Of a stretch of DNA of 30,752 nucleotides, positions 8,760 through 11,701 are shown in pieces; within the stretch, counting starts at the first letter, position 1; each line of letters begins with the position of its first letter. The notes below the pieces were generated by a model. That model was not told the DNA's origin and ran no database searches. It saw only the letters and a program-made list of their open reading frames with translations. Source of the DNA: Candidatus Thorarchaeota archaeon (GTDB lineage Archaea; Asgardarchaeota; Thorarchaeia; Thorarchaeales; Thorarchaeaceae); assembly GCA_048882485.1 (NCBI GenBank), contig JBHLRP010000037.1, forward strand, positions 1 through 30,752, in the 5' to 3' direction. Both the position numbers and the translations under genes were made by a program.

Positions 8760-10316
8760 CTATAATCTACCTTCCTTTCTGCAAAATGCTCTCCATGTTG
8801 TTGCCCATTTCCCCGAATTTGAGAGGCCATCTTCAACTACTTTCGCAACTGAGCAATTGTGAGGCGCGCTCATAATCATCTCTGGGTTGCTGTATGCTTC
8901 TTTGGAAATGGTACGACAGATTTCAACAAACCTGTCTAAATCTTCCTTCGAAATTGATTCGGTTGGCTCAGGAGTAAGCGGTTCCCTAACCAGCCAAGGC
9001 TCATGAGACGTAAAGAATCTTTGAACTCCAAAATCGACAATCCTGCGATTGAAATCAGCAATGCCGACGCCTGTATCATCATACATCTCCATAAGTGACA
9101 GCCTGGACTCATGCAGTCTGTAGGGATGTGATTCATGCCAAGGCAGGCTGATGCCTCTAATTTCGAGCAGCTTCTGCGTTAGGTAGTTATTGTTAATGAC
9201 AGATATCTCGGATACCTCTTTCAATCCGTCCACACCTATGCTCAAGAGCCATGCATAAGCTCTAACGATATTCGATACAACACCGTGGAATTCGCCAATT
9301 TTTCCGATGCTATACGGACGGTCATATTCTAAAGCATATTCGTTGCCATCGAATGCAATAACAGGAATAGGGAGATATTTGCTCAGGCTTTCCTTGACAC
9401 CAATGGGAGCACTTCCTGGGCCGCATGATCCATGAGGAGTTGAAAACGATTTATGGAGATTGAAGTGACACAGATCCGCTCCAATATCACCTACACGAAT
9501 TTGCCCAAATAATGGATTAACATTGGCTTGATCTATTGCCACTAATCCTCCATATTCATGCACAATTGCAATGTATTCTTCGATGTTTTCATCAAAGATG
9601 CCGGTATCATAGGGATTAGTCAGCATCATTCCTGCAGTATTCTCTGAAACTGCAGCTTTCAGCGCTTCTATATCAGGAACGCCAGTTTCATCCGGGTATA
9701 ATGTTATGATCTTAAATCCTGCCACACTTGGCGCCGAGGCGTTACAAGGATGAGAGAGGACAGAAGTAATAATCTCATTCCTTCGTTCCAACTCTCCCTT
9801 TTCGCTGTGATATGCTTTCATTATCAGTGCATTGGTGAATACAGCATGAGCACCTCCTCTTGGCTGAAAGGAGAAGCTATCCATTCCTGAGATTTCACAT
9901 AGCCATGTCTGCAATTTGAACATGATTTCGAGTATCCCTTGCACAGTAGCGATATCTTGCAGGGGGTGCAGGTGTGAAAGCTTTGGCGACCGAGCGATAG
10001 ATTCATTGATTTTTGGATTATATTTCATGGTACATGTTCCCAAACCTGCATTGATTCCTGAATCCGTACCGAATGTTTGCTGCGACAAATGAATGAAATG
10101 CCGAACTACTTCTGGTTCAGAGAGTTCAGGTAGCGGAGGAAGTTCTTCGCGTTTCATTCTATCCGGAATGAGTGAAAGCACATCTCCTACCATTCTTCTG
10201 ATTTCATCGCTTGCTTTCAGCGGAAGAATCCCTCGACGACCCTTTTCTCCCAGTTCATATATTATGGGCTCCTTCCAAATGACAGCTTGATATCCAGTTT
10301 CTCTACTGGTGTTCAT
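8760..10316 (-). CDS. gcvPB: Glycine decarboxylase P-protein beta-subunit-like (divergent)
   Basis: LPELSEPEVVRHFIHLSQ, GTCTMKYNPK, HPLQD..QG.LE, PLP Lys in HFNLHKSFSTPHG, EPTES.SKEDLD. Several canonical residues are altered (see findings). Confidence 0.88.
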   Translation of the reverse strand: MNTSRETGYQAVIWKEPIIYELGEKGRRGILPLKASDEIRRMVGDVLSLIPDRMKREELPPLPELSEPEVVRHFIHLSQQTFGTDSGINAGLGTCTMKYNPKINESIARSPKLSHLHPLQDIATVQGILEIMFKLQTWLCEISGMDSFSFQPRGGAHAVFTNALIMKAYHSEKGELERRNEIITSVLSHPCNASAPSVAGFKIITLYPDETGVPDIEALKAAVSENTAGMMLTNPYDTGIFDENIEEYIAIVHEYGGLVAIDQANVNPLFGQIRVGDIGADLCHFNLHKSFSTPHGSCGPGSAPIGVKESLSKYLPIPVIAFDGNEYALEYDRPYSIGKIGEFHGVVSNIVRAYAWLLSIGVDGLKEVSEISVINNNYLTQKLLEIRGISLPWHESHPYRLHESRLSLMEMYDDTGVGIADFNRRIVDFGVQRFFTSHEPWLVREPLTPEPTESISKEDLDRFVEICRTISKEAYSNPEMIMSAPHNCSVAKVVEDGLSNSGKWATTWRAFCRKEGRL

Positions 10317-11701
10317 CGTAAGACCTCTGCCAATAGATTAGCCAATGTTTCAATATCCCTCTGGCTGTGCATCTCTGTCACACAGTATAGCGCTGTATTT
10401 CCCAACTCTGGAAACTCACTGCTCAAATCTTTACCACCTTGAATCCCAACAGATAGAAGCGATTCGTTGATGTCCTGTACTTTGCGTTCTGTCCCGCTAA
10501 ATCTCACGGTGAATTCCTTAAAGTGCGGTGAATTGAAGATTGGTGCTTCTAAGCTGTCAATTTCAGAAATCAACTTCATAGCATACTGAGAATTCTGCAT
10601 GATTAATTCGCCAAGATCCCGTAGTCCGACTGGACCCAATGCCGCCAAATAGACTGCAGCTGTAATTGCCCACAAAACAGAAGCGGTACCCGTGTATGTA
10701 GCAGCCTTCTCCCTTGCACCAAACATCGTTCTACCGGGCAAGATATATCCGAATCCCCACTCTCCTTCATTCTTAGTTTCTGTTATGCCTACTAGCCGAT
10801 GACCAGTTGCATGTAGGTATTGTTCATCATCTTTGCAGGCAAGAAAGCCAAGAAGAGCACTTCCAAAGTTCATATGCATTCCGAGAGGCTGGCCTTCGCC
10901 ACAAACAATATCCGCACCGTAATCGCCAGGCGGTTTCAATATCCCTAGAGTTATTGGATCCACACCAACGATGAACAAAGATTCGTATTCATGAGCTATT
11001 TTGCCAATAATATCTCCTTCAGTTTCTATGACGCCAAAGTAGGTAGGGTTCTCAATATAGATAGCGGCTGTATCCCGAGATACTTCCTCCTTAAGACTCT
11101 CAATATCGAGCCTTCCAGTATAGAGATCAAAATCAATTGCTCTAATAGTTCCGTTTTCCTCTGTATGTGCCTCCAGCACTTCAAGCCTAGTCGGGCCTAT
11201 TGATTTTGGCACCAAGAGTTCATCTCTGCCAGTTACTTTCAAAGCCATCCGTGCGGCATCCGCCAAAGCAACAGTCCAATCATAGAGAGGGAAAGTCACA
11301 ACATCCATATCAACAAGATCGCCAATCATGCTTTGGAATTCAAATAAAGCCTGATACCTTCCCAAATCTGAATACACCTCTCCAGTATAGGCTGTGACAA
11401 ATTCCGAACGAGAATTAATTTCATCACAAATTGCAGGGACATAATGAGGCCAACAGCCGGCCCCCAGAAAGGAGAGAACGTCCTTGGTTGTGATATTCTT
11501 GCGTAGTAGATTCTCAACCGTCTTCCTCACTTCAGATTCAGCCATTGAAGTAGGCAAGTTCAATTCATGCTTCATTTTCAAGCGTTCAGGAACTGAGGCA
11601 AATAAATCCTCGACGCGTTTTACACCTATTGACTTGAGCATCTGCCTTCTTATTTCTGCCACACTATTGGGAATATACGGATGAGTTGGCATCATCTTCA
11701 C
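10313..11701 (-). CDS. gcvPA: Glycine decarboxylase P-protein alpha-subunit-like (divergent)
   Basis: HPYIPN..MLKSIGV..VEDLF..VP, FLGAG, RSEFVTAY, ALFEFQSMI, PPGDYGADIVCGEGQPLG, CVTE. ATGA overlap with gcvPB. Confidence 0.88.
   Translation of the reverse strand: MKMMPTHPYIPNSVAEIRRQMLKSIGVKRVEDLFASVPERLKMKHELNLPTSMAESEVRKTVENLLRKNITTKDVLSFLGAGCWPHYVPAICDEINSRSEFVTAYTGEVYSDLGRYQALFEFQSMIGDLVDMDVVTFPLYDWTVALADAARMALKVTGRDELLVPKSIGPTRLEVLEAHTEENGTIRAIDFDLYTGRLDIESLKEEVSRDTAAIYIENPTYFGVIETEGDIIGKIAHEYESLFIVGVDPITLGILKPPGDYGADIVCGEGQPLGMHMNFGSALLGFLACKDDEQYLHATGHRLVGITETKNEGEWGFGYILPGRTMFGAREKAATYTGTASVLWAITAAVYLAALGPVGLRDLGELIMQNSQYAMKLISEIDSLEAPIFNSPHFKEFTVRFSGTERKVQDINESLLSVGIQGGKDLSSEFPELGNTALYCVTEMHSQRDIETLANLLAEVLR

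Follow-up and report, generated by a model that had tools for sequence, protein, structure and literature searches.

A divergent GcvP-like enzyme pair in a Thorarchaeota archaeon, its kinase-fold partner gene and its probable action on an amino compound other than glycine

Introduction

Does a gene pair that carries the name of glycine decarboxylase necessarily act on glycine? The question is raised by a locus in 30,752 nucleotides of contig JBHLRP010000037.1 from a Candidatus Thorarchaeota archaeon (assembly GCA_048882485.1; "the window" below means this whole stretch), in which two minus-strand genes resemble gcvPA and gcvPB, encoding the alpha and beta subunits of the P-protein, and a third encodes a protein with a kinase fold. 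A preliminary description of the window had taken the pair for an active decarboxylase dependent on pyridoxal 5'-phosphate (PLP), with a different substrate or acceptor. Our comparison of the pair with its relatives and their neighbouring genes suggests that it is probably an H-protein-independent PLP enzyme for an imported amino compound other than glycine, which acts together with the kinase-fold protein as a subunit in catabolism. A literature search found no paper on this divergent GcvP-like clade. The genes at issue are:

10313..11701, minus strand: GcvPA-like alpha subunit of the "type 1" divergent clade, 460-462 aa (Pfam GDC-P, identity, tree)
8760..10316, minus strand: GcvPB-like beta subunit with PLP lysine K289 (identity, conserved PLP residues, tree)
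7634..8758, minus strand: NAD-kinase/diacylglycerol (DAG)-kinase-fold protein, AcoX/COG3199-like, predicted third subunit (Pfam NAD_kinase and NAD_kinase_C)

Results

A P-protein pair with an intact PLP core and altered motifs

Together with a gene for a solute-binding protein (SBP), these genes form a row of four on the minus strand (SBP, GcvPA-like, GcvPB-like, NAD-kinase-fold), in which the alpha and beta genes overlap by 4 nt and the kinase-fold gene begins 1 nt past the beta stop. In the database, alpha begins two codons further in and has 460 aa, a small correction to the open reading frame (ORF) of the window. Every motif quoted for the pair in the preliminary description is present in the translations, namely TAYTGEVYSD and RTMFGAREKAATYTGT in alpha and SHPCNAS, PHGSCGPG, LHKSF and CTMK in beta. 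Against the Pfam family GDC-P, alpha scores only 219 bits, compared to 355 bits for the canonical copy of the same genome, and beta scores 24.5 bits, under the cut-off of 26.

The overall design is that of the two-subunit P-protein of Thermus thermophilus (GcvPA/GcvPB, EC 1.4.4.2; PDB 1WYT/1WYU/1WYV), which has the same two-gene architecture with overlapping genes. The window proteins align at full length to both chains of 1WYT (E 8e-68 and 1e-90) and share the PLP-binding Lys, Asp and His, and alpha lacks the PLP lysine in both systems. Among 120 type-1 relatives, beta residues H189, D262, A264, N265, N286, H288 and K289 are all 100% kept; alpha of the window keeps the Q of GEGQ. When every large ORF of the 30-kb window was scanned with Pfam, none matched GCV_H, GCV_T or dihydrolipoamide dehydrogenase, so that the absence of gcvH, gcvT and lpd asserted for this stretch holds.

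A canonical glycine decarboxylase elsewhere in the genome

The assembly (G000; 3.96 Mb, 90.5% complete) contains a second gcvPA/gcvPB pair, on contig C20, with canonical motifs throughout (TAYTSYQPE, REQHIRREKATSNICS, AAHGTNPAS and PHGGGGPG). Contig C38 carries adjacent gcvT and gcvH genes, and three further GcvH-like genes bring the total in the genome to four. The search for a second canonical locus that had been suggested for this genome was therefore positive, and because canonical gcvPA/gcvPB and gcvT/gcvH are present elsewhere, the window pair is not the only GcvP of the organism. The window subunits are paralogues that have diverged far from the canonical copy, with 38% identity to its alpha (P0003) and 40% to its beta (P0004).

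The pair belongs to a separate clade with two subtypes

More than 120 protein clusters show 60-69% identity to each window subunit, and the named clusters among them are labelled GcvPA or GcvPB of Lokiarchaeota, Thorarchaeota or Bathyarchaeia. In a beta tree of 100 rows, the window protein fell within a divergent clade of 37 rows with a Shimodaira-Hasegawa-like approximate likelihood ratio test (SH-aLRT) value of 100 and a stem of 0.25; this clade is nested in an archaeal-type group that includes the canonical copies of TACK and Asgard archaea (98) and is adjoined by canonical Bathyarchaeia (83). An alpha tree of 49 rows gave the same picture (SH-aLRT 100 for the divergent clade, stem 0.37; 88 for its placement beside canonical Bathyarchaeia and 98 for the archaeal-type group), both trees being rooted at the midpoint only. 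The separate clade that a GcvP phylogeny had been proposed to look for thus appears for both subunits, on long stems. Because the beta and alpha trees agree, the operon appears to have been duplicated as a whole, after which both subunits diverged jointly.

Among 51 loci whose neighbouring genes were clustered (45 divergent, 6 canonical), all 45 divergent loci share a pattern consisting of AY[TA]G..Y.D.GR[YF] in alpha, where the second Tyr is missing, DQAN instead of DGAN in beta, and a non-GGGG loop after the PLP Lys; the window has it as AYTGEVYSDLGRY, DQAN and PHGSCGPG. The clade comprises two subtypes. Type 1, which includes the window pair, has AYTG[DE]VYSDLGRY in alpha and LSHPCN, DQAN and PH[GA]S[CST]GPG in beta, and type 2 has AYAGEPYEDHGRF in alpha and PHGCGGPA and DQAN in beta. 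A related-locus search of genome contigs returned mostly canonical GcvPB matches, because the search patterns match conserved motifs.

In a survey of 400 Asgard genomes, type 1 (63-66% identity) was present in four of the 86 genomes of the window's own family, each of which also has a canonical copy, and within its own genus only in G000. Several other Asgard families have type 2 (about 50% identity), mostly alongside a canonical copy, and relatives are also found in metagenome-assembled genomes (MAGs) of Acidobacteriota, Pseudomonadota and Aminicenantes. Such a patchy distribution is typical of an accessory paralogue that moves between genomes horizontally.

Two members of the divergent clade have unusual beta frames. 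That of a Pseudomonadota MAG (L015) is unusually long, at 646 aa, and that of a Holophagaceae MAG (L017) has altered sequence directly after the lysine of LHK. ORF calling turned up no separate alpha gene at either locus, and these may be fused or frameshifted forms.

Replaced residues, many of them fixed, are concentrated in the motifs of the P-protein

For a comparison of 120 sequences of type 1 and 72-77 canonical sequences, columns at least 90% conserved in the canonical set were taken as near-invariant. Of 165 such columns in beta, 94 are kept and 46 are replaced, 29 of them replaced and fixed (at least 90%) to another residue; in alpha, 57 of 97 are kept and 25 replaced, with 10 replaced and fixed by the same measure. 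The window pair thus differs from canonical GcvPA/GcvPB in about one quarter of the near-invariant columns, and the replacements are clustered in motifs. All seven canonical motifs are altered: YTPYQPE, REQHIRRxKATSNIC, GAxGE, SAHGTNP, YYDGAN, PHGGGGPG and HxPTxYFP. In type-1 alpha subunits, the second Tyr of YTPYQPE is deleted and the REQHIRR..SNIC loop carries E to T, Q to M, H to F, I to A or G, R to A, N to I or Y, and C to G changes. In beta, GAxGE has become GAHAV, SAHGTNP has become SHPCN and YYDGAN has become AIDQAN; the PHGGGG loop is also rewritten, and the C-terminal HxPTxYFP has become QRFFTSHEPW. Kept across 120 relatives at 60-69% identity, these differences are not chance drift.

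Residue roles were assigned indirectly, by mapping motifs onto homology-model papers on human GLDC (PMC7259800, PMC4767401) and not from coordinates. In human numbering, the replaced columns include Y164, the mobile loop 368-383 with H371 and R373, the G621/E622 loop, G762/G763 and the P893-W897 loop. Y164 and W897 are labelled "active site" in one homology-model study, in which H371 and R373 lie at the H-protein interface of a docking model and the loop 360-384, which contains 368-383, is flexible (PMC7259800). The other study placed residues of 368-383 in a loop mobile on PLP binding and assigned Q366, shortly before it, to the lipoamide channel (PMC4767401).

The clade has also fixed new residues that are charged or polar (R405, D237, H438, E439 and Q263 in beta; D112 in alpha), which suggests that the substrate of the type-1 enzyme may be larger and charged. 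The kept PLP core and the rewritten specificity loops agree with the preliminary description; the change of substrate or acceptor proposed there is, we infer, most likely.

A kinase-fold protein is the steady partner of the pair

The preliminary description covered the GcvP-like pair and did not mention the adjoining kinase-fold gene, which proved to be its constant partner and is predicted to bind it. A homologue lies directly downstream of beta in 36 of the 45 divergent loci and in none of the six canonical loci. Unlike canonical GcvPA/GcvPB, the window pair is not linked to T, H or L proteins, and its steady partner is the kinase-fold protein.

This protein shares the Pfam NAD_kinase N- and C-terminal domains and the GGDGT motif, invariant here, with AcoX and with NAD and DAG kinases; it differs from them by an invariant GGQG..GRGNQ block and by a C-terminal hairpin predicted to dock on beta. 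The TPTGSTAY-type motif, which we take to be characteristic of true NAD kinases, was not evident on reading the sequence. No PDB sequence matched at E <= 0.01. The structural model has a predicted local distance difference test (pLDDT) score of 84.5, and its best Foldseek matches are weak ones to NAD kinases and DgkB/YegS (e.g. PDB 7QVS and 2QV7; template-modelling scores about 0.25-0.3), which gave no clue to the substrate. AcoX is a NAD-kinase-fold protein encoded by the first gene of acoXABC acetoin-dehydrogenase operons. We know of no role assigned to the AcoX/COG3199 family, and a literature search found nothing on it.

Co-folding of beta (20-row alignment) with the kinase-fold protein (21 rows), alpha being left out, gave a score of 0.80, compared to 0.00 for the best of three controls. 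The mark applied is reached by 58 of 80 solved complexes and by 2 of 110 mismatched pairs, rates that are rough here because our own alignments were used. The runs share at least 61% of contacts, with a partner pLDDT of at least 77. To our knowledge there is no solved complex of a GcvPB-like protein with one of this kinase-fold type, so memory is an unlikely source of the result. In the predicted complex, the C-terminal hairpin of the kinase-fold protein (356-371) pairs with strand 200-207 and helix 215-222 of beta and also contacts beta 186 and 193, which flank SHPCN, and 441-444, in the rewritten HEPW loop. Residues on the beta side of the predicted interface are conserved far better in type 1 than in canonical GcvPB; one of them, Tyr207, is a clade-specific insertion. 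The most frequent residues are:

Beta 202: K in 89% of type 1; E in 42% of canonical
Beta 205: T in 94% of type 1; T in 44% of canonical
Beta 217: E in 97% of type 1; E in 58% of canonical
Beta 220: K in 98% of type 1; K in 61% of canonical
Beta 186: V in 93% of type 1; D in 99% of canonical
Beta 441: W in 83% of type 1; L in 97% of canonical
Beta 207: Y in 93% of type 1; gap in 100% of canonical

Judging from this model, the kinase-fold protein probably binds beta physically.

Two further observations concern this family. The genome has a paralogue of the kinase-fold gene, 45% identical to that of the window, at G000:C30:16336-17463 (9334-10563 of L138, minus strand), which stands alone among genes for a SAM hydroxide adenosyltransferase, a DUF5714 protein and a Ras-like GTPase, an uninformative context. 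In the window, positions 25202-27160 on the plus strand encode the E1 alpha and beta subunits of a dehydrogenase for 2-oxoacids or acetoin (E1_dh; Transket_pyr and Transketolase_C), without an adjacent E2 or E3 gene; a VOC gene (24719-25180) precedes the pair and an EamA transporter gene follows it. The E1 pair and the AcoX-like kinase-fold gene lie 16 kb apart in separate operons.

The pair is not co-distributed with H-protein or MtmB

GCV_T is absent from all 14 Pfam-annotated loci of the clade. GcvH-like genes number 2-4 in genomes that carry the type-1 pair and 1-5 in those that do not, and the carriers G385-G387 have only two, like most non-carriers. A dedicated alternative H-protein was considered and rejected, as carriers have no surplus of GcvH over non-carriers. 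These counts, with the Pfam scans of the window, agree with the earlier view that the pair has no dedicated H, T or L partner.

At one locus (L094), a DGC-GcvH fusion lies about 3.5 kb from the divergent pair. It was rejected as a dedicated partner, since the corresponding cluster in G000 lies on another contig and is common in non-carriers. This conserved cluster (G000:C13, 7999-11369 of L139, plus strand; also 13036-15988 of L094) contains the DGC/GcvH fusion (278 aa) together with a small ferredoxin-like gene, two genes with DGC domains and one gene each for HTH_5 and DNA_binding_1. Many relatives have frames of about 280 aa with a GcvH match, and the fusion may be a lipoyl carrier joined to a Cys-rich domain.

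The window also holds a pyrrolysine-free MtmB-like gene (20227-21630, minus strand), of which the genome has a second copy on contig C123 with 67% identity. Of the 86 genomes in the family, 17 have MtmB-like genes; the other three carriers of the type-1 pair are not among them, and no MtmB or corrinoid homologue was found in the other fetched loci of the clade. Five of the 17 MtmB-like homologues in related genomes have a single in-frame stop (TAG in three, TGA in one and TAA in one), which could reflect pyrrolysine or selenocysteine read-through or mark pseudogenes.

Transport and oxidoreductase genes recur around the module

The neighbouring features of the window are:

11969..13198, minus strand: Peripla_BP_6 SBP, upstream of alpha with a 268-nt gap (Pfam)
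13261..17345, plus strand: LivH/LivM/LivG/LivF-type ATP-binding cassette (ABC) importer, divergent from the SBP gene (Pfam BPD_transp_2 twice, ABC_tran twice)
17357..19066, plus strand: M24 creatinase/ectoine-hydrolase-like protein and DUF3830 (Pfam, NCBIfam)
3038-4468, minus strand: FAD_binding_2 flavoprotein (Pfam)
4510-5466, minus strand: epimerase-type extended short-chain dehydrogenase/reductase (SDR) (Pfam)
23924..24409, minus strand: AsnC/Lrp-type regulator (Pfam)

Several of these have counterparts beside the module elsewhere. Homologues of the SBP and the Liv permeases are found at L094 and L100 and of the LivG/LivF ATPases at L098 and L100, and Pfam annotation places a Peripla_BP_6 SBP, BPD_transp_2 permeases and a FAD_binding_2 gene in the same places at L144. 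The M24 and DUF3830 pair follows the ABC genes at L098 (in G387), the flavoprotein has a homologue at L094, and an SDR homologue follows the kinase-fold gene at L095. It is possible that M24 and DUF3830 belong to the module and supply its substrate, and the flavoprotein and SDR are candidates for downstream oxidoreductases. An AsnC homologue lies one or two genes after the kinase-fold gene at L094, L099 and L100, as does an AsnC-type gene at L144 (Pfam). In the window, the AsnC/Lrp-type gene is 15 kb from the module, a weak link, and possibly regulates it.

Across type-1 loci, recurring neighbours include transporters (Liv ABC with SBP, AA_permease, Opp and EamA), oxidoreductases for aldehydes or oxo-acids (AFOR, Fe-ADH, FAD_binding_2 and IOR-like) and the AsnC regulator. 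Directly upstream of alpha, 29 of 34 type-2 loci have an SDR of 263 aa, often duplicated, and four Thorarchaeota type-1 loci have instead a gene of the 2,4-diaminopentanoate-dehydrogenase family (native amine dehydrogenase type). The window operon contains neither an SDR nor an amine-dehydrogenase gene, the epimerase-type SDR being two genes away on the same strand.

PDB relatives of the SBP are generic Leu/Ile/Val-type binders only (E about 1e-15) and thus give no clue to its ligand. Ectoine or 2,4-diaminobutyrate is a guess at the substrate that draws on the M24 gene of the window, AstE/AspA at L013 and the 2,4-diaminopentanoate-dehydrogenase-family gene at the four loci; we leave it unranked because no single locus holds a full pathway.

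A 13-nt near-perfect inverted repeat lies just past the SBP stop (window 11905-11945, minus strand; ctgtgccagtgaa ... ttcactggcacag). As a terminator or attenuator, or as a site where a protein binds, the hairpin between the SBP and alpha genes could separate the two units. A search of the window against Rfam gave no RNA family.

Discussion

Proposed function of the module

We propose that an archaeal two-subunit glycine decarboxylase was duplicated and then changed function, retaining its PLP-binding and Schiff-base machinery. The loops that were rebuilt would be those that, in true P-proteins, surround the glycine site and the lipoamide channel and form the face for H-protein, and dependence on both glycine and H-protein would have been lost with them. 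The pair would not work with T, H and L proteins and would have in their place the translationally coupled kinase-fold protein, probably docked on beta near two rewritten loops. The module would be catabolic and accessory, and spread by horizontal transfer. Its substrate, an amino compound but not glycine, would be imported, here by the adjacent Liv-type ABC system, and acted on by the kinase-fold subunit, presumably through ATP-dependent phosphorylation. The PLP enzyme would then decarboxylate the compound at C-alpha, or possibly eliminate phosphate, and the resulting amine or aldehyde would pass to neighbouring NAD(P)- or FAD-dependent oxidoreductases. The order of the steps and the catabolic role are those that the gene neighbourhoods suggest.

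Tentatively, we go one step further and picture a three-protein PLP enzyme in which the lipoyl H-protein has been swapped for a docked, ATP-using kinase-fold subunit, so that phosphorylation and PLP chemistry would be coupled on one complex with a substrate other than glycine, such as a hydroxylated or diamino acid. This version may well be wrong even if the wider proposal of an H-protein-independent PLP enzyme is right.

Several observations weigh against that proposal. Both subunits pass the NCBIfam equivalog cut-offs for GcvPA and GcvPB (NF001696, 485 vs 364; NF003346, 552 vs 441), and for this reason the pair may have leftover glycine activity; some alpha residues near the substrate are also retained (the AYT at the start of its motif and the K in REKA). 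The structural roles of the replaced residues come from homology-model papers and motif mapping. In the real heterotetramer, alpha, absent from the co-fold, could occupy or alter the docking site. When Pfam-annotated metagenome loci are included, the kinase-fold gene is adjacent in nine of 15 type-1 loci and not in the other six. Finally, 78 of 85 relatives without the GcvP-like pair have a paralogue 45% identical to the kinase-fold protein, and carriers have both copies, so the kinase-fold family is not exclusive to the module.

Alternative explanations

The best surviving alternative, which we consider unlikely, is that the enzyme is not a decarboxylase: the kinase-fold subunit would phosphorylate a hydroxyl beside the amino group of an amino alcohol or hydroxylysine-like compound, and the GcvP-like pair would act as a phospho-lyase releasing aldehyde, ammonia and phosphate. 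Pairs of a kinase and a PLP phospho-lyase are known (ethanolamine kinase and ETNPPL, aminopropanol kinase and its phospho-lyase, hydroxylysine kinase and PHYKPL), and like them the window module would join a kinase with a fold-type-I PLP enzyme in aldehyde-yielding catabolism of an amino compound. The likeness is one of logic only, however, as both the kinase fold and the PLP subfamily differ, the known phospho-lyases being class III aminotransferase-like. The tight coupling and predicted docking of the kinase-fold protein fit this alternative, as do the aldehyde-handling enzymes that recur nearby (AFOR, Fe-ADH, SDR) and the setting of one locus (L145) among proline/hydroxyproline-type genes (Pro_racemase, DAO, OCD). 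Arg405, His438 and Asn423, new and fixed in the clade, could bind phosphate. The amino-acid transporters (Liv, AA_permease) suit an amino acid at least as well, and the six type-1 loci without an adjacent kinase-fold gene also count against a phospho-lyase.

That the pair is a second true glycine decarboxylase, an isoenzyme used under other conditions that hands its aminomethyl group to a lipoyl H-protein (the GcvH of C38 or one of the three others), is decidedly improbable. Such a function would be in keeping with the equivalog scores, the intact PLP core, the four GcvH-like genes of the genome and the DGC-GcvH fusion near the pair at L094. However, the motifs for the glycine side, the channel and the H-protein interface are replaced and fixed, the carriers' GcvH counts match those of most non-carriers, the DGC-GcvH cluster is on another contig here and present in non-carriers, GCV_T is missing from all 14 annotated loci, and the conserved partner is a kinase-fold protein and not H or T.

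A relic left by duplication of a P-protein, inactive or regulatory and without catalysis, would explain the loss of many canonical motifs and is very hard to credit: every residue that binds PLP or takes part in catalysis is 100% kept, the new residues at the replaced positions have become fixed in more than 100 clusters at 60-69% identity, and both subunits have been retained together with the partner gene across Asgard archaea, Bathyarchaeia and several bacterial phyla.

Slow, H-protein-free release of methylamine from glycine, an established activity of isolated P-protein, could in principle feed the MtmB-like and corrinoid methyltransferase genes about 10 kb away in the window, a link that had been raised speculatively; the phyletic pattern of MtmB-like genes and their absence from the other fetched clade loci contradict it, and methylamine is not an expected substrate of an MtmB-like protein that lacks pyrrolysine, which makes this explanation extremely doubtful.

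Implications

The automatic annotation of the divergent pair as GcvPA/GcvPB is misleading. Because pipelines give these names to the divergent genes, reconstructions of metabolism can credit Asgard archaea, Bathyarchaeia and other uncultured lineages with a step of glycine cleavage or of the reductive glycine pathway that they lack, or count it twice. If the predicted docking on beta is true, it would offer a first functional handle on the AcoX/COG3199 family, and if phosphorylation and PLP chemistry are indeed coupled on a three-protein complex, this would be an enzyme class without described precedent, spread from Asgard archaea and Bathyarchaeia to several bacterial phyla. With over 120 clusters of at least 60% identity in this subtype alone, the family is large and strongly conserved and would mark an undescribed step in how sediment archaea break down amino compounds.

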